Assembly (NCBI GenBank): GCA_051382295.1
Contig: JBBCAW010000013.1
Span: forward strand, 1-64,000
Length of the DNA stretch: 64,000 nt
Direction of reading: 5' to 3'
DNA from: Bdellovibrionota bacterium FG-1
Lineage (GTDB): Bacteria; Bdellovibrionota; UBA1018
Positions within the stretch are counted from its first letter, which is position 1. Each line of letters starts with the position of its first letter. This document shows, in pieces, positions 5,147-19,053 of the stretch. The position numbers and the translations under genes were made by a program. The notes beneath the pieces are model-generated. The model did no database searches, had not been told where the DNA came from, and worked only from the letters and a program-made list of their open reading frames with translations.

Positions 5147-7519
5147 ATGTCAGTGGGCCTGCGCTTTTCAGAACGGATGGCCGGTTGGATCACGCTTGAG
5201 GGGCATCCGAATTTTCCGGGCTTCGAAACCGGCGTCAAATACCCCTTTGAAATCAATTTAGGAGTTTTTTCTTCAAAGATTTTTCGACTCTCTCCTCCTC
5301 GCGACCTCACAGGATATGCCCTTTTCCCAGGATCAGATCTTAGCCCCTCAAATCCGGAGGTTACCGGACAGCTCACGATCCGTCCAACTGGCATTACCTA
5401 TGAATTTAAAATCGATCTAGGTGAAGAAAAATACCTCTCTTTCCAAGGGAAAAAGACCTACGCCCATCCACTCAAAGGCTGGAACCGTTTTAGGAACTCC
5501 CTCACCATCCTCCCGCTCATCGTAAGCCACGAAGGCCGACAGATCGGCACCGCAGAGCTTGTCTATCGAAAGCCCCTCTGGCATTTTCCTTTGGGAATCC
5601 GCTTATCAAAAAACCGAGGCGAACGTCTGAAACGCCAAGACTTGGCGGCCAGGGTCTTGATCATGACCCGGGTTTTTGTCACCCGTTCCGAAACGCTCAT
5701 CGAGCCCCAGGAACTCCAACACCGCCTGCAAATGGATCTTGAACAAATCCCGGTATGGGCGGAATGGCTCACTCGTTCCACGCTGTTTTGGATTCAGGTG
5801 TTATCGCTCCTTTTATTTCGAAGAACCGTCGGCCGGCTAGACGGTGAACAATCCCAACGATTTTCTCGGCTTTTCATGCGTAACTCAACGCTTCGAATTC
5901 TAGCGCTCTCGGTCAGCGTGCCTTTGCTGTCGGCAGCTTATTCCTCCCCCAAGTATGTAGCCAAAAAAGGACAAAACGTCCCTACGCCTCCCACCACATC
6001 GGAACCTGAACGCTGGATGTCGCTTTGCCACTCACCGACCTCGTCTTGGTCTGAGCAATCTCTAGAGGTCGACTTCGTGATCATCGGATCCGGTGCCGGC
6101 GGAGGTGCGGCCGCCTACGAACTTGCTAGCCAAGGCCATGCAGTGGCGATTGTCGAAGAAGGCGCTTACTTTAAACGAAAAGATTTTACAGGCGATCGCG
6201 TCGATGTCACCCGTAAATTATTTAGGGACAGCGGTTATAGCTTTACCGTTTCAAATGCGATGCTTTGGTTGCCGACGGGTCGTTGCGTAGGGGGCACGAC
6301 CACGATTAACGCCGGCACTTGCTTCAGAACCCCGCCACACGTGCTCAACCACTGGCGCCAAACGAACGATCTTCTGGATGTGGATCTTGAGTCCTATTTT
6401 CCCGAAGTGGAAACGATGCTGGACGCCAAACCGGTTGATCCCTCACTTCACGGGCCCATCCGGGACATTGCAGCGCGCGGCCTGGAAGGAACCGGTTATA
6501 TTTGCGAGCCGCTCAAGCGTGCGGAAACCGGGTGCGACGGCCAGGGGTTTTGTATCACCGGCTGCCCCACTGGAGCCAAACGGAGCACGGATGTGTCTTA
6601 TATTCCGGAGGCCTTGAAGCGGAACGCCCACCTTTTTACTCAATACAAAGTCGAAGAACTTCTCTTTGAAAAAAATCGCGTGATCGGCCTACGGGCCCAA
6701 CTCCCCGGTTATGGTCCAGAGTTTTCAATTCGGATCTTGGCCAAAAAGACGATTCTCGCCGCCGGAAGTCTCAATACCCCTCTCTTACTTTTTCGAGCGG
6801 GCATACATTCCTCGCTGCCCCAACTTGGAAAAAATCTGACCGTTCACCCCGCGCTTACCGTGGGGGCGATTTTCAACCAGAAGGTTCGACAAAAACTCTA
6901 CGTCCCTCAATCATTAGGGGCGATTCACCCTCATAACAAACGGTTCGTACTCGAAGGTTATACCTTACCCGTTGATTCGGTACCCGTGGGAATGGCACTC
7001 TACGGTCGCGATCTTGCTTATCTGATGGATCACGTGGATCGGTTTGCTAATTTTTCGGCCATGCTCACGGACTCAACCCATGGAAAACTTCTCTTATCGA
7101 AGTGGGGGGCGATTCCTTATTATCATTTTGACCGAGAGGCAGTCGATCGTCTTCGAAGCGCCACGACTTTACTGATTGAGATGTTCTTTAAAGCCGGGGC
7201 TAAAACGGTCTACGCGCCCGTCAAAGGATTTGAACGCATTCGAAATTCGACTGACGCTAAACGCTTGGCAGCCGCTCCCCTCAAAGCGATCGATTTTTTG
7301 AATCTGTCGGCACATCACCCCCTAGGCACTTGCGTGATGGGCACTACCCCTCAAAACTCAGTGGTTTCGTCGAGCGGCAAGGTTTGGGGCTACGAAAACC
7401 TCTACATCGTAGACGGCTCGGTCATTCCTGGCCCTCTGGGAGTCAACCCCCAAGTGACCATTATGGCAAATGCACTGAGAATCGCTCGAAAACTCGGAAC
7501 CGACCTTGGAGTGTCATAG
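5147..7519 (+). CDS. GMC family FAD oxidoreductase with an N-terminal extension
   Basis: IIGSGAGGG FAD motif, GRCVGGTTTINAG, CDGQGFCITGC, HHPLGTCVMG, GVNPQVTIMA; RBS AAGGAG. Confidence 0.9.
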   Translation: MSVGLRFSERMAGWITLEGHPNFPGFETGVKYPFEINLGVFSSKIFRLSPPRDLTGYALFPGSDLSPSNPEVTGQLTIRPTGITYEFKIDLGEEKYLSFQGKKTYAHPLKGWNRFRNSLTILPLIVSHEGRQIGTAELVYRKPLWHFPLGIRLSKNRGERLKRQDLAARVLIMTRVFVTRSETLIEPQELQHRLQMDLEQIPVWAEWLTRSTLFWIQVLSLLLFRRTVGRLDGEQSQRFSRLFMRNSTLRILALSVSVPLLSAAYSSPKYVAKKGQNVPTPPTTSEPERWMSLCHSPTSSWSEQSLEVDFVIIGSGAGGGAAAYELASQGHAVAIVEEGAYFKRKDFTGDRVDVTRKLFRDSGYSFTVSNAMLWLPTGRCVGGTTTINAGTCFRTPPHVLNHWRQTNDLLDVDLESYFPEVETMLDAKPVDPSLHGPIRDIAARGLEGTGYICEPLKRAETGCDGQGFCITGCPTGAKRSTDVSYIPEALKRNAHLFTQYKVEELLFEKNRVIGLRAQLPGYGPEFSIRILAKKTILAAGSLNTPLLLFRAGIHSSLPQLGKNLTVHPALTVGAIFNQKVRQKLYVPQSLGAIHPHNKRFVLEGYTLPVDSVPVGMALYGRDLAYLMDHVDRFANFSAMLTDSTHGKLLLSKWGAIPYYHFDREAVDRLRSATTLLIEMFFKAGAKTVYAPVKGFERIRNSTDAKRLAAAPLKAIDFLNLSAHHPLGTCVMGTTPQNSVVSSSGKVWGYENLYIVDGSVIPGPLGVNPQVTIMANALRIARKLGTDLGVS

Positions 7520-10507
7520 CGCAAGTGTCTCAATGCGCTTCACCATTAAACTTTGATCCGCTTGCACCTTCCCACTCACCCCTAAGAAACCATGACCGCG
7601 CAAGATCTCTTCGTACTTTTCATACACCTCGGCATGGATCACCAAATCAACCAAACCCTCTTGGTCCTCAAGCGTCGCAAAGCACATTCCCTTGGCAGTC
7701 GGCGGCCGCTGACACGCAATGACCAATCCTGCCACCTGGAGCCAACTTCCATGCGAAGCCCCTCGCACGGTTTGACTCGTGACCCTCGAAAATGCCCCCT
7801 TGAGCTTTTTGCGCAACACCTGCATCGGATGCCCCTGGGTTGAAAGCCCAAAAGACCGATAATCTGCGCGAATCGACTCATGCTCGGCCATAGGCGAAAA
7901 CACCGCCTGATCTCCACTTCCAATCCCAGCCGAGAAAAAATCCAACTGCTCCGCAAGATGAACTCCTCGATACGACAAGAGCTCCCATAAAGCTTCGCGT
8001 TGACTCAGGCCAAAACACGCAAAAGCGTCGCCCATCGCTAGTCCCTCCAAGACAAGCGGTTTAAGCCTCGTCCGACGAACAAAATTCCCCAGACTTAAAA
8101 AAGGTCCTTCCGTAGTACGATTTTCCTGTAATGCGCTAAACTCCATTTCAGACAAACTTCGAACGACCCGAAAGCCGATTCGAATTCCTAGCCGCCCATC
8201 GGGACCTTTTTCAAGCGAAGAGTCCCAGCCGGACAAGTGAGGATGCACGGGAAAAACTAAAACCCCATGCCGTTTCACTTCATCGACCAAAGTATGCGAA
8301 GAATAAAAGCCCATCGGTTGCGAGTTCAAAAGAGCTTGGCAAAACTCCGCGGGATAATGACACTTAAGATAGGCTGAAACATAAGCCAAAAGCGCAAACG
8401 AAGCCGCATGTGACTCTGGAAAGCCATACTCCGCAAAACCCTGGATTTGTTTGAAAATTCGTTCTACAAATTCGAGTGGTAACCCGCTCCTCAAAAGCCC
8501 CTCTCTCAGTCGAAGCCCCACGCGCTCGATGGACCCACTCGAACGCCAAGCGCCAATAGCTCGCCGAAGTTCATCGGCTTCGCCCGGTGTAAAACCCGCC
8601 AGTTCAATGGCCATCTTCATGACTTGTTCTTGAAACAGCGGAACACCCAACGTCTTACTTAAAATCGGCACTAATTTAGGATGAGGGTAATCGACAATCT
8701 CCTCACCCTTTCGTCGCCTCAAATAGGGATGAACCATCTGGCCCACGATCGGCCCCGGTCTGACGATAGCGACTTGAATCACAAGATCGTAATAAGTTTG
8801 AGGCTTAAGCCGTCGAAGCATTCCCATTTGCGCGCGAGACTCAATTTGAAAAACCCCGACCGTGTCGCCTTTTTGTATCATTTGATAAGTGGGCAAATCA
8901 TCGGCAGGCACTCCATAGAGTTTCAATCCGACTTGCTTGAGAGTTTTTTGAATCGCGGTCAACATCCCCAATGCCAGGATATCCACCTTCAAAAGTCCGA
9001 TGACCGCGAGATCTTCTTTATCCCACTGAACAATGGTGCGCGCTTCCATGCGCGCCGGCTCAATCGGTACCGTTTCAATGATCGGATCGGCAGAAAGAGT
9101 AAAGCCTCCTGAATGGATCGACAGATGCCTCGGAAAACCGTAAATTTCATCCATCAGTTTTTGAGCCGTCGGATCATGCGCCGCTACTTCAGGCCTCAGC
9201 CCCAAAGCCTTCGAAATATCGCGAATCGCGGAGCGCGTCCGATAGGTGACCACTGCGGCGACCATTCCGGCCCGATCCCGCCCATATTTTTGATAAATAT
9301 GCTGAATCACTTCTTCCCGCCGCTCATGCTCAAAATCCACATCAATATCCGGCGGCTCTCCACGCTCGGCCGAGATAAACCGTTCAAAAAGTAAATTCAT
9401 CCGCACTGGATCCACCGCCGTAATTCCTAAGCAGTAACAAATCGCCGAATTGGCGGCCGATCCTCGACCTTGACACAAAATTTCGCGCGCGCGCGCGAAT
9501 TCCACAATTTCCCAAATAGTCAAAAAATAATCGGCAAAGCCCAACTCGTTCACCAGCTTGAGTTCGTGTTCCAACTGCTGCAAGACGGCATCGGAAATCA
9601 AGGCCCCATAACGACTTTGAGCGCCTTCAAAAGTGAGGCGACGGAGATAACCATAAGCCGTTTCACTCGTGGGAATCCACTCGGAGGGGTAACGATAACG
9701 AAGTTCGGACGGAGAGAAGCTACAATGATTGGCGATCTTGACGCTATTACGGAGTGCCTGCGGAAGCTCCTGGAAAAGGACCGCCATCTGCGCCGGAGAT
9801 TTAAGAAAGCGCTCTCCATTAGAAAAGACCTCAAAACCGAGTTCATTTAAATTTCGATTACACCGAATAGAGGTCAAAGAATCTTGAAGCTTACGCCGTT
9901 CAGCGTGATGATAGTGCACTTCATTTGTGGCCACTACTTCGAGGCTCAACTGCTGCGCCAAAGACAAGGAGTGCTGGATTCTTTTCTGATCTCGGCCATC
10001 CAAGGTTCGCGAAACGGGCAAATAAAGCCGTTCACCAAAAAAGTCCCGCAGCGTTCTGAGCGTCTCCAAAGAGGCAGCACCCTCTTCCGGCAAGGCAAAA
10101 AGACCCTCACGCCCCTTCGCGAAGCGGCCATCTTCCATAAACTCTAAGAAACGACGCCACTCTAAACTACAGTCCCCCTTGGACTTACCTTCATGGCTGG
10201 CACTGAGAAGTCGGCACATCAGCCCATAACCCGCACGATTTGCGGCAAGAAGCGTGAGACCGGGTAAATCTCCCGCGAGGGTCAACTCCGCCCCAGAAAT
10301 CAGCTTGAAGTTCACTCGACGTTCTTCGGGCAAGTTTTTCCAAGCGGAGTAAGCTTTCGGAACTCCGTAAACCCCATTGAGATCCGTGATCGCAAGAGCT
10401 TGAAGCCCAAGCGCTGCGGCCCTTTCTACGAGTTCCGCCGGATGCGAGGCTCCCCTTAAAAAAGAATAATGAGTGCGACAGCGAAGCTCCGCGTACCATT
10501 CGGTCAA
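7514..10507 (-). CDS. dnaE2: error-prone DNA polymerase DnaE2 (ImuC)
   Basis: PHP domain HYSFLRGASHPAELV, QGRGSAANS, PPDIDVDFEHERREEVIQ, GFPESHAASFA, C-terminal OB fold. Confidence 0.97.
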   Translation of the reverse strand: MTEWYAELRCRTHYSFLRGASHPAELVERAAALGLQALAITDLNGVYGVPKAYSAWKNLPEERRVNFKLISGAELTLAGDLPGLTLLAANRAGYGLMCRLLSASHEGKSKGDCSLEWRRFLEFMEDGRFAKGREGLFALPEEGAASLETLRTLRDFFGERLYLPVSRTLDGRDQKRIQHSLSLAQQLSLEVVATNEVHYHHAERRKLQDSLTSIRCNRNLNELGFEVFSNGERFLKSPAQMAVLFQELPQALRNSVKIANHCSFSPSELRYRYPSEWIPTSETAYGYLRRLTFEGAQSRYGALISDAVLQQLEHELKLVNELGFADYFLTIWEIVEFARAREILCQGRGSAANSAICYCLGITAVDPVRMNLLFERFISAERGEPPDIDVDFEHERREEVIQHIYQKYGRDRAGMVAAVVTYRTRSAIRDISKALGLRPEVAAHDPTAQKLMDEIYGFPRHLSIHSGGFTLSADPIIETVPIEPARMEARTIVQWDKEDLAVIGLLKVDILALGMLTAIQKTLKQVGLKLYGVPADDLPTYQMIQKGDTVGVFQIESRAQMGMLRRLKPQTYYDLVIQVAIVRPGPIVGQMVHPYLRRRKGEEIVDYPHPKLVPILSKTLGVPLFQEQVMKMAIELAGFTPGEADELRRAIGAWRSSGSIERVGLRLREGLLRSGLPLEFVERIFKQIQGFAEYGFPESHAASFALLAYVSAYLKCHYPAEFCQALLNSQPMGFYSSHTLVDEVKRHGVLVFPVHPHLSGWDSSLEKGPDGRLGIRIGFRVVRSLSEMEFSALQENRTTEGPFLSLGNFVRRTRLKPLVLEGLAMGDAFACFGLSQREALWELLSYRGVHLAEQLDFFSAGIGSGDQAVFSPMAEHESIRADYRSFGLSTQGHPMQVLRKKLKGAFSRVTSQTVRGASHGSWLQVAGLVIACQRPPTAKGMCFATLEDQEGLVDLVIHAEVYEKYEEILRGHGFLGVSGKVQADQSLMVKRIETLAL

Positions 10508-11841
10508 TCAAAATAACCATGAAGATAAAGAGAAGCGTGATCAACATACACCCAAAGGTGCTCGCCACTCTCCGCCACTACTCGATAGTAATCCCGGCAA
10601 AAACCGCTATTTTCAGCACTCTTCCACCACTCTCCTGAAATTCGCTCCGGCCCTTGCCAACTCAAAACCTTCCATCGCCTGCCATCCGAGGCATTCAAAC
10701 AGCGGTCTTGAGAATCCAAAGGTTCGGGTTGCTTCAAAATCCGAGTCGGACGATCCGAACCCCTCACTTCCGGAACCAAAACATCAGTTTCGGGCATGAG
10801 CTTCCGCGAGTAAGCGCTTTCTGGCAGATACCTTTGCTCAGGAAGTGCAACGAAAACCCGGTCTTTTCCGAGTTTTTGAGAAAGTCGCGCCACAAGCCCA
10901 TCCCAAACCTCTTGTTCTTGCTCTTTCTTTGAGAAGAAATCGCGCTGCTGCCCCATTCCCGGCACGGTTTCGAGCACTTCCAATTCGATTTTTTCGATCG
11001 GGCAAAGCAAAGGGGTGCGCGCGAGTTCAAAGGCCAGGCGTTCTCGGAGAATGGGCATTAAAAGCGTCGTCGATCCCTGCGGCAAAGGGAGCTCGATCCG
11101 CCATTGTCTTTTCTCGGGCCCAAAGCGAAGTTCCAAGACTGAAACCCGCTCCAGCCGTCCTCGAAGACGAGCCATGGCCTTGTCGACCACTTGTTTCAAG
11201 ACAAAAACCACGCCTTCAAGATCCACACATAATCCGTGAGCTTCAGGGTCACAGACTTCAGAACGTTCTATCACTCGCGGAGTAGGATAAAACCCCGGCC
11301 AGGCTGGCGAAAATTCACCGTGAACAGAAGCCATAACCGCAAGCGCGGTTCTTCCAAATCGGGAGGCCAAACTGGCGCGTGGAAGACACGCAAAAGCGCC
11401 CACGTTGAGCACGCCCAATGCCTTGAGCGCGGAACGAAGTCGGGTCATTTGTTTTTCATCATCCACTTGATGGCAAAACGGACTGCCATAATCCGTAAGC
11501 GCTTCGAGCGGGAGTTGATGAAGGTCTCGTGTTCGCGCATAATTGGGGTATTTTGCGGCAGCCAAGGCCGAAGCGGCTGTATCAGCGATCGCGATTCGCA
11601 CCGGAGTACGAAGCACTCGGGCTGCTAGAACTTTTAATCGCGCTTCTATAGTCGCCTCTGAAAAAAGTGCGCGACTTTTTCCGATCTCGATAAAAATCGC
11701 TTCGTTTTCACGAACCGCCACTTGTGGACTGAGCCGTAAACAAGCTTCCGCCAAAGCCTTGAGCGCCTGCTCATGACTCCCGCCTCCCACCACCCAAACA
11801 CAAGCCACGCGTTGACGCTTTAAGGAACAGACATTTGCCAT
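10504..11841 (-). CDS. imuB: ImuB, Y-family polymerase-like mutagenesis protein
   Basis: C-terminal GPERISGEWW...RDYYRV...YLHGYFD; overlaps the dnaE2 start. Confidence 0.9.
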   Translation of the reverse strand: MANVCSLKRQRVACVWVVGGGSHEQALKALAEACLRLSPQVAVRENEAIFIEIGKSRALFSEATIEARLKVLAARVLRTPVRIAIADTAASALAAAKYPNYARTRDLHQLPLEALTDYGSPFCHQVDDEKQMTRLRSALKALGVLNVGAFACLPRASLASRFGRTALAVMASVHGEFSPAWPGFYPTPRVIERSEVCDPEAHGLCVDLEGVVFVLKQVVDKAMARLRGRLERVSVLELRFGPEKRQWRIELPLPQGSTTLLMPILRERLAFELARTPLLCPIEKIELEVLETVPGMGQQRDFFSKKEQEQEVWDGLVARLSQKLGKDRVFVALPEQRYLPESAYSRKLMPETDVLVPEVRGSDRPTRILKQPEPLDSQDRCLNASDGRRWKVLSWQGPERISGEWWKSAENSGFCRDYYRVVAESGEHLWVYVDHASLYLHGYFD

Positions 11842-12449
11842 GATTTTTGACCCTTATATTTTAAAATATCGAGAAGCACTTCAGACTCCACCTGGTTTTC
11901 CAAAAAACCTGCACCGAGCGGTCTTCCTGACAACCGAGGAACCCAACGTCGAGAAATCTGAAGCTGCACCGAGATCGGCCAGGTTCCGCGCTTTGCAGGA
12001 CTTTCAGAAAGTAAGATGACGGTAACGCCCCCTTTTTCTGCCGCAAGCTGAAGTCTCCGAAGCAGTTTTTCATCATAAACACCTTGCAGCTCGCGCTGAC
12101 ATCCGGCCAAAACCACGACCTGAAAAATCCCCCCTCGAATGAGCTGATGAGTGCTCCAAAGAGCTTGACCTGGCGGGCTATCCACAAAGAGGACGCGATC
12201 GAGCGCGACTTGATTTTGGGGGAAGGCACACGGATAGACGCTAAAGTTTTCTTCCACCCAAGCCACCCGAAGCCCCGGGTTCTGAGCCAAAAAGCGCAAC
12301 ACAATCTGCGTCTTACCTGAGCCAGGGGCGCCACTCACTTCAACTAACGCACCCAAGGGAAGCCCTTCATCCAGCCCTTCAAAAGGGAGGCTTTCAGAGG
12401 TTTTTTTAGGCATTTTTCTATACAAACTCAAAAGATCGATGGCATTCAT
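11820..12449 (-). CDS. imuA: ImuA, RecA-like mutagenesis protein
   Basis: GLPLGALVEVSGAPGSGKT, LRRLQLAAEKGG; upstream of imuB; start at 12449 or 12413. Confidence 0.85.
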   Translation of the reverse strand: MNAIDLLSLYRKMPKKTSESLPFEGLDEGLPLGALVEVSGAPGSGKTQIVLRFLAQNPGLRVAWVEENFSVYPCAFPQNQVALDRVLFVDSPPGQALWSTHQLIRGGIFQVVVLAGCQRELQGVYDEKLLRRLQLAAEKGGVTVILLSESPAKRGTWPISVQLQISRRWVPRLSGRPLGAGFLENQVESEVLLDILKYKGQKSWQMSVP

Positions 12450-12465
12450 ACTCCATTTAGGATAT

Positions 12466-12481
12466 CCATACAGATGTATGG
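12466..12481. promoter_or_regulatory. palindrome CCATACA-GA-TGTATGG, candidate LexA operator
   Basis: perfect 7-bp inverted repeat in the short gap between divergent imuA and lexA. Confidence 0.65.
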
Positions 12482-13077
12482 TGTCCACAACTTTGTCCCC
12501 CAAACAGGCAGAAACGCTGGCGTACATTGAAAGTGAAATTACAAGGCAGGGTCGCCCTCCCACCTATCGGGATATCGCGCGCGCCCTAGGCTATGACGCC
12601 GTCGGTACGGTGCAAGACCATATTAGCGCGTTGATTCGCAAAGGTTTCCTCCACAAAGAGCCGGGTGTCGCACGCGGCATCCGGCTCACCCGTCGAACGG
12701 AGTCGATTGATATTCCCATCTTAGGAGCGATCCCCGCGGGCCCCCCCATGGAAGCCATAGAAAACGCGCTTGGCTATCTTTCTATTCCCGCACAATGGAA
12801 GGGCGAGATTTACGCTTTACGAGTCACGGGCGAAAGCATGATCAATGCCGGAATTTTTGATGGCGACTTCGTCATCATACATCGCCAAGCTGCGGTTCAC
12901 AGCGGAGACATCGTCGTGGCGATGATTGATGGCGAGTGCACGGTTAAATACCTCGAAAGAAAGTCGGGGCAGGCGCGGCTCTTACCCGCAAACCCACGAT
13001 TCAAGCCGATCGAGATCCCGCCTGAAAGCGACAACCTGATTCAGGGTAAGGTAGTTTCGGTGCAGCGGTATTATTAG
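12478..13077 (+). CDS. lexA: LexA SOS repressor
   Basis: PPTYRDIARALG wHTH, IPAG cleavage site, GESM Ser, TVK Lys. Confidence 0.95.
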   Translation: MVSTTLSPKQAETLAYIESEITRQGRPPTYRDIARALGYDAVGTVQDHISALIRKGFLHKEPGVARGIRLTRRTESIDIPILGAIPAGPPMEAIENALGYLSIPAQWKGEIYALRVTGESMINAGIFDGDFVIIHRQAAVHSGDIVVAMIDGECTVKYLERKSGQARLLPANPRFKPIEIPPESDNLIQGKVVSVQRYY

Positions 13078-13127: not shown

Positions 13128-13190
13128 GTTATAAAAACAACACTACATGTCGTTTTTATAACACCTTTCGAAAAACGACATGTTATGCTA
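13128..13190 (+). promoter_or_regulatory. overlapping inverted repeats and an extended -10 upstream of the ATPase
   Basis: GTTATAAAAACAACA/TGTCGTTTTTATAAC and ACATGTCGTTTTT/AAAAACGACATGT; TGnTATGCT. Confidence 0.55.
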
Positions 13191-13202
13191 TTCTTATCAT
13201 AC

Positions 13203-14423
13203 ATGCCACACTCCCGAAAAAGGTACATTGAACCTCTCCTCAAAAACAGCATGAGCCTAAGTCCCTTAGTGGGAGTCCTTGGACATCGACAAGTCGGAAA
13301 AACCACGTTGCTTGAACACCTATCCCAACGATATTTTGTGCTCGACAAAAAAAAGGAACAAACCGAGGCGCAAACAGACCCGCAGAGTTACCTTGCCTCG
13401 CGAGCAGGAACTTGGGTAGCACTCGACGAATGTCAAAGCGTTCCGGATCTTTTCCCAGAGCTAAAAGAATGGGTTCGAACGCATAAAAAACCAGGACAGT
13501 TTATTTTGAGTGGTTCGGTTCGCTTCAGCTCTCGAGAAGCCATTAAAGAGTCCCTTACGGGCAGAATCGTCAACCTGGATCTACTCCCCTTTACCGTCAC
13601 GGAAGCGCATTCAGAACCACTATCTGACTTTCTCCTTAAAGCGCTCGACGCTTCTGATTTTATGCGATGGGCGCAGTCCCTTTCATACTCATTGTCGACT
13701 ATCGATAAACGTCATCAACAACTCAGAAAGTACTGGGAAACCGGAGGACTCCCGGGAGTGTGCTTCCTCCATGATCCCAAGCAAAGACGATTCAAAATCG
13801 AAGAACAACTGCTCACCATTCTGGACCGTGATATTCGCCTAGTGAAAAAGATTCAGCTCCCGCTAGGCGATATTCGAGCGGTTTTGACGTCGCTAGCCGA
13901 ACAGCAAGGTTCACCGCTCGATTTATCACGAATTCGAATTGAGACCGGCGTCTCATTCCCCAGTATCAAAAAATTACTCTATGTCTTTGAGGCAACCTTT
14001 CTCATTCGTCCGATTCGAATCATCGGATCCTCAAAGGGCACTTGTGTATATTTTGAAGATCAAGCCGAGGCGAGGAGTCTTACCCCTCAAAAAAAATATT
14101 CCGACCTCGAACTCTTTACTCACTCCCTTTTTTTGAACCTCCGCGCCCAATTCGAATACCGCATTGGGGAGACCTATTCTACATTTCGATTCGAAACACG
14201 AGGTGGAGCCTTAGTTCCCCTTTGTTTTCAAACTCAAATGGGAACAATGGGGATCATTCCTGTTTTGTCCGACGAAGATGCTTACCGCCAAAACACGGGG
14301 AGTATTCGGAGTTTCTTGAGCAAGTATTCTCAATCCAAGATACTCCTCGTTCATCTCTCCAAAAAGGCACCCAAGGCCATCACTGATCGCGTCCTGAGCG
14401 TCGCGGCAGGATCGATTCTTTAA
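13203..14423 (+). CDS. AAA_14 ATPase with DUF4143-type C-terminus
   Basis: GHRQVGKTT Walker A, VALDECQ Walker B, GQFILSGS, ESLTGR, GGLPG; probable start MPHSRKRY. Confidence 0.85.
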   Translation: MPHSRKRYIEPLLKNSMSLSPLVGVLGHRQVGKTTLLEHLSQRYFVLDKKKEQTEAQTDPQSYLASRAGTWVALDECQSVPDLFPELKEWVRTHKKPGQFILSGSVRFSSREAIKESLTGRIVNLDLLPFTVTEAHSEPLSDFLLKALDASDFMRWAQSLSYSLSTIDKRHQQLRKYWETGGLPGVCFLHDPKQRRFKIEEQLLTILDRDIRLVKKIQLPLGDIRAVLTSLAEQQGSPLDLSRIRIETGVSFPSIKKLLYVFEATFLIRPIRIIGSSKGTCVYFEDQAEARSLTPQKKYSDLELFTHSLFLNLRAQFEYRIGETYSTFRFETRGGALVPLCFQTQMGTMGIIPVLSDEDAYRQNTGSIRSFLSKYSQSKILLVHLSKKAPKAITDRVLSVAAGSIL

Positions 14424-14463
14424 ATCCGCCCTTCACGTCCTGATACCCCTCGAGCCAGTGGGA

Positions 14464-14640
14464 TTTACTGCCGCTAAACGGCAGTTCAGGCCTTTCGCCA
14501 CCTACTTAACTCCCTTTACTGCCTCAGGCCGGCAGTAGAAGTCTTTGTCCCCCCACTGAACCGCATCTACTGCCGCTAGACGGCAGTTCAGGCCGCTGAC
14601 CCTTACCCCAACTCTGTTTACTGCCGCGCACAGGCAGTTG
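14464..14640. repeat. non-coding array of four ACTGCC-N7-GGCAGT palindromes at an exact 51-bp period
   Basis: ACTGCC starts at 14467, 14518, 14569 and 14620; 32-nt interspaces; stop codons in all six frames. Confidence 0.9.
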
Positions 14641-14753
14641 ATGCAACTCATGGCCGTGAATCAAAAATCCGAAGCGCCTTAACAGCTGTCCAAAACGTAG
14701 ACACCCACCATCACTCTATCGATCATATAAAGCCATTACACCTCGAACTCAAT

Positions 14754-14769
14754 CGGCACGCAAGTTGCT
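14754..14769 (+). promoter_or_regulatory. sigma54 -24/-12 promoter
   Basis: CGGCAC-GCAAG-TTGCT upstream of the ORF at 14815. Confidence 0.7.
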
Positions 14770-14814: not shown

Positions 14815-15231
14815 ATGGCTTCAAAAAATTATCGGTTAATCCTCATCGGACTGTCATTTTTGTCAACGGCAAGTATCTCCGCACAAGCGGATTTGAAGTC
14901 TCTCACGGGATTTCAAGGCTATTGGCAATCCGACAACGTGGTCCTCCATTTCGTACTCCAAAATACGAACACTCAAGAGGAACCTTTTTTGGAAAAACAC
15001 CTCTGCCGCGCCTCGGTCTTTCAAACGACGGGTGAGTGCCTGAATTCAGATCCAAGCATTGTTCTATGGAACGACACGATCAAAAAGCTCTGTGGATCAT
15101 CCCAGCGGACGGATTCAACCCCCTGTGACCTGAGCTATGAACTAGATCCATCTCGATCGGATGTCTTACTGGAGGGTGTGGTGCCAGCGCCTCATGGATG
15201 GAAACCTTCGTCCTATGAGCGGATTAAATGA
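14815..15231 (+). CDS. secreted hypothetical protein
   Basis: RBS AGGAG; signal peptide ending AQA-D; four Cys. Confidence 0.7.
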   Translation: MASKNYRLILIGLSFLSTASISAQADLKSLTGFQGYWQSDNVVLHFVLQNTNTQEEPFLEKHLCRASVFQTTGECLNSDPSIVLWNDTIKKLCGSSQRTDSTPCDLSYELDPSRSDVLLEGVVPAPHGWKPSSYERIK

Positions 15232-16047: not shown

Positions 16048-19000
16048 ATGCCGCGTCCATTATTAATAGTAATTCCTCTCATAGCGTTAGCTCTAACGGG
16101 GTGCAAGGAATCCTCCAATGGAGCCACTGCGGCTTACGCAAAACCTTCACCCAGTGTCTCCGCAAGCGCAACTCCTTCTGCAAGCCCAACCGCCACACCC
16201 GCGGCAAGTCCATCACCTTCCGCCACCGCGTCTGCAACTCCTGCAGCAACTCCTTCTGCAAGCCCAACCGCCACACCCTCAGCCACACCTACTGCAACTT
16301 CCACCCCCTCCTACTCCATTGCTCTTTCCGTCAAGGGTGGAAGCTTAAGCAGCATCACCGCTAATGGCTCTGCAACAACAATTCTTCAAGCCCTCGTATT
16401 GGATCAAGACCTGAATCCAGCACCGGGTCAGTCGGTCACGATTAACCTTCCCGCTAGTGGCGGAACTTCCTCTGCCTCACCAGCGACCACCAACGGCTCC
16501 GGCATCGCAGAATTTACGATCACCAGCTCAACCCTGGCCGGTATTTATTCCTACACCGCTACCGCGAACGCCGTAACTTCCAGTAGTACCTCCCTTACTT
16601 TTACTTCGGTCGCACCCACCCTCACTGTAACACCCGTGATTAGCCTAGTTGGCCTCACCGCAACCCAAACTCTCAGTACGTCGGGTGGAACCGGGCCGTA
16701 TAGCTATTCCATCGTCAGTGGCCCCGGTGATGTCAACGCCGCATCTGGCCTCTTCACGGCCTCTTCAGGGAGCACGGGTGATTACGTGAAAATAAAAACC
16801 CAAGACTCGTTGGGGGCCGTAGGTTACGCAAACATTACACTCGGCATCGCAGCCACCAATTATACGATGTGCACGAATACCACTGCAACAGCGAGCGCGG
16901 GCACACTTTATGACTCCGGGGGCGCAGGAGCCGACTATAGCCCAGGCGAAAACTGCGGATTTTTGATTACTTCCCTTTGGGCCATCACCGCCAGTTTCGA
17001 CTCCTTAGGAACCGAAGCTGGATATGACCCTGTCAAAATCTACGACGGGGCTGACACCAGCGGAACACTTTTAGGTACTTTTTCGGGATCAGCCACGCCC
17101 GCTAACCAAACCGCTACAAGCGGCCAGATGTACGTTAAATTTAACAGTGATGGCAGTGCTCAAGGCACAGGCTTTGTCATGCATTGGACAACCCCTAACC
17201 CTACCGAAACGAGTCCGGTGGTCGCCAATTTTACAGCCTCTCCGTGGGCGGGACTCAGTAGCACAGTTTTTAGCTTCACGGATTCGTCCTCCAATTCGCC
17301 ACGAACTTGGAATTGGAGCCCGACAACTCTGGCTAAAACGGCAACACCCAGCGGCGCCCTACCTGGAGCAGGTTTAACGCCCGTTTCCCTCACGGTTTCG
17401 AACGCTCTTGGGACTGACACCAAAACGAACAACGTTTATTTAGGATCTCTCCTCGCCGGAAATACCGTCAAGATGTGTACAAACACCACCGCGACCACAA
17501 CGAGCGGAAACTTGGTCGACTCAGGGGATACCTTGGTCAACTACAGCCCAAACGAAAATTGCACCCTGCTCATTCAGCCGGTCGGGGCCACGAGTATCAC
17601 TCTTTCGCTTTCCTCCATCGCAACTGAGGCCGGTTACGACGCCCTCAGGGTTTATGATGGCACAGATGCAAATGGTCCGCTTTTAGGCACATTCTCGGGA
17701 TCAGCCACGCCGGCTCCGGTCACTGGAACAAGCGGAAGTCTGTATCTTACCTTTGTCAGCGATGGGTCTCTTCAATTTGCAGGTTTCAACGCGTCGTGGA
17801 CCAGTGATGGCTCGGTCGTGGCGCCAACGACTGATTTCTTTGCGAGTCAGACCACGATTGCCGTTGGGGAAACCATTACCTTGAGAGATCTCTCCGGCAA
17901 CACGCCCACCTCTTGGGCCTGGGACTTTGAAAATACAGGAGCCACGGATTCCACTCAGCAAAACCCCAGTCATGCTTTCGCAACTGCCGGAGCAAAAACG
18001 GTAAAACTCACCTCAACCAATGCTGCGGGCTCCAACTCTCAAACTAAAGCGGCGTATATCACCGTCTCGAATGCAAATAAAATGTGCTCCGATACGACCT
18101 CGAGTGCGACCTCAGGGTTTCTTTTCGACTCTGGGGGCCCGAGCGGAAATTATTCGGATAGTGAAAACTGTGGATTTCTGATTCAGCTGGGCGCTGGACA
18201 CACCGTTGGCCTCAGTTTCTCCTCCTTTAGTCTCGAAGAGGGATCCGATTTCATCAAGATCTATGATGGAACCAATGCTTCCGGCACCCCCCTGCATACT
18301 GGCAATGGATTCACAGGAGCTAACCTTCCATCCTCAGTCGCAGCTCAATCCGGATCACTCTATCTAGTGATGACCACCGACTCGTCAGTCACCCGACCTG
18401 GATTTAAAGCCACCTGGAGTGAATTTCAGATTTCGTCCGTAGCGGGTCAGTTGCTCTGGCTAAAGGCCGATTCGCTTTCGCTGAACGACGGGGATGGCGT
18501 AGCGACCTGGACCGACTCCAGCGCAAACCATAACGATGCAACACAAGGAACCCTAGACAGGCAACCTATTTTTAAAACGAATATCGTCAATGGAAGACCC
18601 GTCATTCGGTTTAGTAATACAAACAACACCTACCTAGGACTGACCACTCAGCTCACCACCGTAAGAACAGCCTTTATAGTGACGAAATATTCGGGTGCGG
18701 CATTGAATTACCTGTTTCTTTTAGGTGACTCTGGAGCTTATCATTTTCACGGAGCGGCTGGAAATGGATTATTTAGCAGTGATTACGCGTCAGCATCGGT
18801 GCTTAACGGTTCAGGTTACATCAACGGCACTGCCACCAGCGTGGCGAGTATGACCCGGCCCACGAGTTTTGCCACGATCACCCTCGCAATGACCGGTAGC
18901 ACAACGGTCGGCTATATAGCGCAAGATCGAAATATGAACGATCGGAGTTGGGACGGCGATATCGCAGAAATCATCCTCTACAGTACCGCCGTCTCCGATA

Positions 19001-19053
19001 GCGATCGGATCTTGATCGAAGCCTACCTTCGGTCGAAGTATTCCTTGCCGTGA
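16048..19053 (+). CDS. large surface lipoprotein/adhesin: S/T/P/A linker, Big_1-like, 3 CUB, 2 PKD and LamG-like domains
   Basis: lipobox LTGC; three copies of DSG..Y..ENC..I...E.G.D..K/RI/VYDG; PTSWAWDF PKD; LLWLKAD...GDIAEIILY. Confidence 0.85.
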   Translation: MPRPLLIVIPLIALALTGCKESSNGATAAYAKPSPSVSASATPSASPTATPAASPSPSATASATPAATPSASPTATPSATPTATSTPSYSIALSVKGGSLSSITANGSATTILQALVLDQDLNPAPGQSVTINLPASGGTSSASPATTNGSGIAEFTITSSTLAGIYSYTATANAVTSSSTSLTFTSVAPTLTVTPVISLVGLTATQTLSTSGGTGPYSYSIVSGPGDVNAASGLFTASSGSTGDYVKIKTQDSLGAVGYANITLGIAATNYTMCTNTTATASAGTLYDSGGAGADYSPGENCGFLITSLWAITASFDSLGTEAGYDPVKIYDGADTSGTLLGTFSGSATPANQTATSGQMYVKFNSDGSAQGTGFVMHWTTPNPTETSPVVANFTASPWAGLSSTVFSFTDSSSNSPRTWNWSPTTLAKTATPSGALPGAGLTPVSLTVSNALGTDTKTNNVYLGSLLAGNTVKMCTNTTATTTSGNLVDSGDTLVNYSPNENCTLLIQPVGATSITLSLSSIATEAGYDALRVYDGTDANGPLLGTFSGSATPAPVTGTSGSLYLTFVSDGSLQFAGFNASWTSDGSVVAPTTDFFASQTTIAVGETITLRDLSGNTPTSWAWDFENTGATDSTQQNPSHAFATAGAKTVKLTSTNAAGSNSQTKAAYITVSNANKMCSDTTSSATSGFLFDSGGPSGNYSDSENCGFLIQLGAGHTVGLSFSSFSLEEGSDFIKIYDGTNASGTPLHTGNGFTGANLPSSVAAQSGSLYLVMTTDSSVTRPGFKATWSEFQISSVAGQLLWLKADSLSLNDGDGVATWTDSSANHNDATQGTLDRQPIFKTNIVNGRPVIRFSNTNNTYLGLTTQLTTVRTAFIVTKYSGAALNYLFLLGDSGAYHFHGAAGNGLFSSDYASASVLNGSGYINGTATSVASMTRPTSFATITLAMTGSTTVGYIAQDRNMNDRSWDGDIAEIILYSTAVSDSDRILIEAYLRSKYSLP
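16168..16278 (+). repeat. 33-bp direct repeat in the adhesin linker
   Basis: GCAACTCCTTCTGCAAGCCCAACCGCCACACCC at 16168-16200 and 16246-16278. Confidence 0.8.

Follow-up and report, generated by a model that had tools for sequence, protein, structure and literature searches.

The locus described here raises the question of what kind of element places four short palindromes with identical stems at even intervals directly behind an ATPase gene. It lies in a window of 64,000 nucleotides, positions 1 to 64,000 of a contig of Bdellovibrionota bacterium FG-1. The original prediction, made from the letters of this window, offered three answers: a small-RNA array forming a module with the ATPase or mimicking a CRISPR, phased operators for a dimeric protein that might be enhancers of a nearby sigma-54 promoter, or a decayed array.

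Layout of the array and its surroundings

The cores, ACTGCC-N7-GGCAGT, start at 14467, 14518, 14569 and 14620, and their identical stems and the loops GCTAAAC, TCAGGCC, GCTAGAC and GCGCACA are as first described, as are the spacing of 51/51/51 bp and the 28/30 nt (93%) common to units 1 and 3. With at most one mismatch allowed, the motif gave 4 matches against 0.10 expected, a number reached in 0 of 100 shuffles. Stops fall in all six frames across the array (3, 2, 2, 2, 1 and 10), so every frame is closed, as had been stated. The gap from the end of the ATPase ORF (14423) to the first CTGCC is 44 bp, in agreement with the earlier estimate of about 40 bp, and a sigma-54-like site reading TCGGCACGCAAGTTGCT is present at 14753-14769, where a promoter had been placed at 14754. 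The features of the array and its flanks are as follows.

13185..14423, plus strand: AAA_14 ATPase with a weak DUF4143 match, ORF of 412 aa (family search), a neighbour outside the element
14450..14466, plus strand: leader remnant TCGAGCCAGTGGGATTT, without the 18-bp leader palindrome of other copies
14467..14485, unstranded: dyad core 1, ACTGCC-GCTAAAC-GGCAGT (motif scan)
14485..14518, plus strand: inter-core segment of 34 bp, family A (clustering; cluster 6, 10 members, 8 loci)
14518..14536, unstranded: dyad core 2, loop TCAGGCC (motif scan)
14536..14569, plus strand: inter-core segment of 34 bp, family B (clustering; cluster 5, 10 members)
14569..14587, unstranded: dyad core 3, loop GCTAGAC (motif scan)
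14587..14620, plus strand: inter-core segment of 34 bp, family A repeated, where six other four-unit loci have family C
14620..14638, unstranded: dyad core 4, loop GCGCACA (motif scan)
14638..14663, plus strand: trailer module TTGATGCAACTCATGGCCGTGAATCA (15 trailer matches, all at known loci)
14687..14703, unstranded: separate dyad TGTC-N9-GACA, a probable activator (enhancer) site outside the repeat
14753..14769, plus strand: sigma-54-like -24/-12 promoter match, score 17.5 on a matrix written from the consensus
14815..15231, plus strand: ORF of 138 aa that starts like a signal peptide and matches no family, present in 1 of 116 genomes

Three further features of the window were recorded. Upstream of the ATPase gene, a conserved repeat ACATGTCGTTTTT...AAAAACGACATGT (13134-13184) is common to homologues in relatives and is likely an autoregulatory or promoter element. 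The stretch 7514-13077 encodes a DnaE2-like polymerase, a RecA-like ORF, a 445-aa ORF without annotation and, divergently, lexA; together they look like an imuA-imuB-dnaE2 mutagenesis cassette, with imuB assigned by position only. Finally, positions 16048-19053 encode a protein of 1001 aa that looks secreted and has Ig-like, CUB and PKD domains.

A repeat family dispersed through the genome

The array had been called an orphan, which is wrong: the same element is present at 35 loci of the genome. A profile search (nhmmer) gave 39 clusters, four of which (E>1e-3) were left out, and the 35 intergenic loci that were kept hold 76 units, at one to four per locus (one unit at 16 loci, two at 7, three at 2 and four at 10). 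Gene positions are those of a simple purpose-made gene caller; by these calls all 35 loci lie between genes, with four overlapping low-scoring short ORF calls that were treated as spurious, and the orientation of one locus (C12:171770; C numbers denote contigs) was set by eye. It is near certain that the array is one copy of a dispersed, non-coding repeat family. The exact motif ACTGCC-N7-GGCAGT occurs 44 times in the genome, with 0 or 1 occurrence at each of the other spacings from 3 to 11, and CTGCC-N7-GGCAG has 77 sites compared with 3-6 at five other spacings. The repeat core is also the commonest 5-bp-stem dyad of intergenic DNA (74 sites).

The element is built from a leader, 51-bp units around CTGCC-N7-GGCAG and a trailer. 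Leader and trailer are common to most loci, the leader often opening with an 18-bp palindrome. The loops comprise 42 types in 76 units, and 30 of 40 inter-core segments fall into families A, B and C, 10 in each, the rest forming a looser group. The order is A-B-C at six loci and A-B-A at the array at 14467-14638 and one other locus. The shorter loci have the look of deletions made in register. Two hybrid segments have their crossover mid-segment, outside the cores. The leader palindrome is also found solitary at 11 sites (C31:74763, C31:75248 and sites on C22, C56, C62 and C137 among them); on C31, a 123-aa signal-peptide ORF lies between two direct copies whose flanks are shared. We also found a second dispersed repeat, family 2, with 36 sites (for example C39:54503 and C3:124915), which forms a long hairpin around GGGGATCCGCGCGCGCAG, has co-varying arms, is enriched in convergent gaps and is REPIN-like.

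Among the genomes searched the repeat is confined to this lineage. The core motif has 76 matches in this genome and 0-2 in each of 115 others of the order, none of which belongs to the same genus, and a DNA search of 400 genomes of the phylum gave nothing convincing (2 matches, E about 0.008). The tandem pattern had only 2 matches in a collection of genome contigs, both actinobacterial and unrelated-looking, 0 in metagenomes and one irregular match in a viral collection, on a viral contig (L048:1-150) that opens with irregularly spaced CTGCCG-N5-CGGCAG-like repeats. A metagenome scan for single units gave 63 loci, by estimate about the chance level. Our literature search found no publication on the motif, which does not show it to be unpublished.

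Array loci favour gaps between co-directional genes, with 24 of 32 classifiable loci in such gaps compared with 475 of 957 long gaps overall (P=0.004), and within these tandem gaps 18 are sense and 6 antisense (P=0.02); the P values are overstated because the copies are related by descent. The loci are spread over 22 contigs against 26.7 expected (P=0.03), a weak sign of clustering, below what an assembly of 158 contigs can resolve. No replication polarity of the kind seen in KOPS or Chi was found, the element strand being about even against local GC skew. Neighbours include DUF4143 ATPases (three), MazF (two), Fic, DUF433, ORF6N, AlbA_2, DUF4423 and a weak MIDAS adhesin match, the last two in keeping with Bdellovibrionota, many others being housekeeping or unannotated genes, and no neighbour family recurs besides the DUF4143 ATPase and MazF pairs. 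Accessory genes, counted as Pfam matches at E<=1e-6 with a weak RHH and a sub-cut-off MqsA-like match left out, adjoin 9 of 35 loci compared with 5-7 of 30 random gaps (P=0.55-1.0; against family 2, P=0.12), which gives no significant link. Tandem paralogous basic peptides of 49-51 aa (MKNKK...) were observed at C5:62300-63326 and C22:72744-73342; several lie behind sigma-54-like promoters, and one that was scanned had no family match.

Constraint on core and period

The genome was scanned with matrices of the flanks only, trained on the known loci. In 69 of the 74 slots next to these flanks, this core-blind scan met a core with one mismatch or none, with 5 mismatches in 690 positions, and it found no locus beyond the known ones. 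The period is strict as well. Adjacent exact cores less than 1 kb apart are 51 bp apart in 36 of 37 cases and 52 bp apart in one, and the inter-core segments measure exactly 34 bp in 40 of 41 cases. Along a minimum spanning tree the 41 segments differ by 234 substitutions and one length change, with a divergence of 16-23% within families A-C and 46-56% between them. Indels are assumed to make up 5-10% of changes, and given this share the constancy of length has P<=1e-4. Internal controls vary more, with off-mode spacing in 4 of 12 cases in the leader and 18 of 32 inside family 2. The mirror symmetry of the unit profile extends about 21 bp from its centre, with A/T at plus/minus 19 in about 90%. 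Pairing at variable mirror positions was 6.54 compared with 6.83 for shuffled partners, and within the loop it was worse than shuffled (0.83 vs 1.04); the arms of family 2 pair at 17.2 of 22 vs 10.4 when shuffled, a strong co-variation. All these comparisons are somewhat overstated, the copies being related by descent.

The fixed 34-bp segments, kept despite about 50% divergence between families, and the missing co-variation point to phased sites on duplex DNA, which we infer from the sequences to be read by a dimeric candidate protein. The reading that we tentatively prefer, and to which we give slightly less than an even chance when its whole mechanism including the boundary is counted, is a modular dispersed repeat, each unit of which would be bound as double-stranded DNA by a dimeric protein. 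The element would have been copied around within this lineage, and unit number would be altered through in-register exchange between units. One dimer is predicted to bind each unit on duplex DNA, and the period would be kept because neighbouring dimers need about five helical turns to lie on the same face of the DNA. Such a lattice would not be needed everywhere, since 16 of 35 loci are single-unit, and no candidate for the binding protein was found. The bound array might then form a boundary between the 3' end of the upstream gene and the next promoter, which is the weakest part of the proposal.

The phased dimer sites are the part of the earlier operator proposal that fits best; its second part, that the array might be an enhancer of the promoter at 14754, is probably incorrect, because a separate order-wide motif, TGTC-N9-GACA, is present. 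This dyad lies at 14687-14703, 66 bp upstream of the sigma-54-like site, and is the probable enhancer of that promoter. The motif often reads TGTCTAAA-N-TTTAGACA and stands 40-70 bp upstream of sigma-54-type promoters. It precedes 20 of 134 sigma-54-like promoters of this genome compared with 8 of 664 weak ones, and 70 of the 116 genomes of the order have motif plus promoter, compared with 9 for the reversed control. We presume a resemblance to PilR sites, although our literature search did not bear this likeness out. The form YGTC-N9-GACR is present in 6 of 24 array tandem gaps and 18 of 451 other tandem gaps (P=6e-4); it is found downstream of 7 of 35 arrays and upstream of 0 of 35 (background 18/716), and is absent downstream at 28 of 35 loci. 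Between array and enhancer, most loci have no DNA in common apart from short trailer extensions, so the placements look independent. The enrichment of arrays just upstream of TGTC-N9-GACA enhancers is what suggests a boundary role. It is unlikely that the repeat is, more specifically, a bacterial boundary element, a self-spread array of phase-locked protein sites insulating the sigma-54 enhancer-promoter modules of young secreted-protein genes from transcription upstream, or a recombination edge of variable gene islands.

Alternative readings and known repeat systems

Sequence-specific reading of a hairpin in single-stranded DNA would also fit the invariant stems, and since REP stems, as described in PMC8266576, carry required mismatches, the lack of co-variation is compatible with it. 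Each unit might be a short non-canonical REP/BIME-like hairpin, tagged with TYTA on its 5' side and copied by a transposase of the Y1 (HUH) type, the arrays being functionless head-to-tail amplifications; we regard this as unlikely. TTTA or TCTA stands before 60 of 76 cores, and a symmetric dimer leaves this flank bias unexplained since TYTA on the left is tighter than its mirror, which a tagged hairpin would explain. At position 6/12 the pairs are G-C 29, G-A 30, T-C 16 and T-A 1, so that every 6/12 mismatch is a G-A on one strand. Short GC-rich intergenic palindromes that are lineage-specific and form tandem clusters are shared with REP, BIME and REPIN elements (PMC8266576, PMC3337134, PMC3733652), as is the presence of Y1 genes, of which the genome has nine matches, one of them 1.2 kb from an array, on one side, with two ORFs between. 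Moreover, 13 of the 63 metagenome loci (L058, L067, L073 and 10 others) carry the same core beside tandem REP doublets, an assignment made by eye, with an inner arm GATTTACTGCCG-N5-CGGCAG and varying loops, and one of them matches a Pseudomonas REP word given in PMC3337134 at 15/16 positions; this may be coincidence.

Against this reading, a GTAG/GTGG/GGAG/CGTC tag lies within 12 nt of just 14 and 10 of 76 cores on the two strands, and the units are co-oriented, with no inverted doublets, long hairpin or REPtron found. The repeat has no convergent bias (4 of 32 loci vs 12 of 30 for family 2), and its spacing is fixed, whereas the REPIN spacings described in PMC3337134 differ by a few bp. The other eight Y1 genes lie away from arrays, and the Y1 family is found in 64 of 116 genomes of the order, with up to 19 matches per genome (e.g. 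L007:1324-1923); no REP-like flanks were seen, and the core is present at 0 of 19 relative loci. The original prediction had named genome-wide scatter as a generic REP-like repeat with no gene linkage as the finding that would count against it; such scatter is largely what we found, but the repeat is not a standard REP.

Rather less likely than a REP-like hairpin is a recombinase target, in which 9-7-9 core sites would exchange accessory genes or integrate phages. The overlap of lambda-type sites is 7 bp. In this genome, contig C84 and C39:51524-53214 are two alleles of one locus, appearing as an assembly bubble. The C84 allele has four units, Fic, PIN-type and other toxin-antitoxin-like pairs and an intact Na+/H+ antiporter; the C39 allele has one unit, other content and a fragmented antiporter. 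The identity of the two begins at TTACTGCC, the left arm of the core of the last unit. Thus unit number varies among co-existing strains, four in one allele and one in the other with no empty site among the two, and the edge hints, in this one case, at exchange at the element. The single case is set against the absence of any adjoining tyrosine recombinase or resolvase (27 and 14 matches in the genome, respectively), of an IS110 transposase anywhere in the genome and of a match to the integron integrase TIGR02249 over the cut-off. Half-sites outside the loci are at control level, the accessory neighbours (9/35 vs 5-7/30) give no link, and the hybrid crossovers lie mid-segment. The element ends are ragged, and no terminal repeat or target duplication was detected, with a shared flank word of 6.1 inverted and 5.8 direct vs 5.9 shuffled. 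An integron attC array was rejected, given the lack of an integrase over the cut-off and the many housekeeping neighbours.

The layout of the array has its closest parallels in two known repeats, and by analogy it would work most like neisserial dRS3/RS and be built like pneumococcal BOX. The neisserial NIME (dRS3 plus RS) has 6-bp conserved arms, an 8-bp variable centre and RS elements of 19-214 bp, as described in PMC1797815. Both systems have a dyad with conserved arms and a variable centre, which favours a recombinase target, as well as spacer families, varying unit number, lineage specificity and proposed protein sites, for dRS3 those of a recombinase (PMC1797815). The likeness is an analogy only, since here the repeat sequence differs, the centre is 7 bp, segment length is 34 bp in 40 of 41 cases, arrays have at most four units with leader and trailer, and an integrating phage or recombinase was not found. 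BOX (boxA-boxBn-boxC) shares the leader, the variable number of tandem modules, the trailer and the dispersal, and effects on the expression of neighbouring genes are reported for it (PMC3049150). By comparison, our repeat has no terminal inverted repeat that we could find, has heterogeneous families around an invariant dyad and favours tandem gaps. Multicopy intergenic families of Geobacter metallireducens are likewise lineage-specific and proposed sites of global regulators, but are 7-8-nt tandem repeats in inverted pairs at variable distance (PMC2700814). The core motif does not appear in the passages on these families, and the supplementary alignments of that paper may bear on the comparison.

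An RNA element is improbable; here the hairpins would be co-transcribed in a 3'-UTR and would either undergo processing or serve as sites for an RNA-binding protein. The sense bias of 18:6, an RNA fold z of -3.27 for 14424-14720 and GGA in 20 of 76 sense loops vs 3 antisense are consistent with it. However, variable positions show no compensatory change, Rfam gave no match for the window region or six other loci, six loci are antisense, and RNA hairpins would have no need of a 51-bp period across divergent spacers.

It is very improbable that the array is an enhancer for a sigma-54 activator of the downstream gene. Arrays lie upstream of 6 of 20 promoters with TGTC-N9-GACA and 3 of 114 without it (P=3e-4), but 14 of those 20 have no array, motif and promoter are widespread in the order (70/116 genomes) whereas the array motif is confined to this genome, and the downstream promoter score reaches at least 16 at just 3 of 35 loci.

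Type I-F CRISPR repeats have an ACTGCC...GGCAG stem and 32-nt spacers, and the array shares the stem and the 32 nt between its 19-nt units. It differs in its variable 7-nt loop, its 51-bp period, its recurring spacers and its 35 loci. It is hardly credible as a type I-F array, whether orphan or decayed, as a CRISPR mimic, or as a system of ATPase plus repeat: cas1 (PF01867) and cas6f (PF09618) had 0 matches in a genome 97.7% complete with control searches positive, the interspaces had no match in phage and plasmid sets (BLAST, E<=1), and the loops are of 42 types in 76 units. The earlier argument that the spacers were not acquired holds, because segments recur in families, in their usual order, across loci, and decay is contradicted by nearly invariant cores at fixed spacing. 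DUF4143-type ATPases make up 3 of 67 neighbours, about 0.7 being expected (P=0.03), but the proposed ATPase link fails, with an array behind just 3 of 40 AAA_14/DUF4143-type ATPases of the genome and at none of the 29 homologous loci in relatives, among them two of 83% and 79% identity (two of the 29 with <120 bp of downstream sequence); 44 of the 116 genomes of the order have an ATPase homologue. A coding repeat of 17 aa was rejected as well, since any one frame is open in at most 4 of 12 long arrays and a peptide search was empty. The repeat fails the tested defining features of CRISPR, REP/REPIN, MITE ends and attC. It does not represent a novel defence system or one related to CRISPR.

Families of small intergenic repeats are widespread, and most of them lack an explanation. 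The repeat described here is real, selected, lineage-specific and dispersed, and what distinguishes it is an exact 51-bp period held across spacers that are half diverged, without hairpin co-variation. A sigma-54 regulon that can be put to the test is defined by the TGTC-N9-GACA enhancer motif found across the order. If the boundary reading is false, the repeat is one more lineage-specific family in an uncultured bacterium; if it is true, it would show a spreading repeat recruited to partition promoters.
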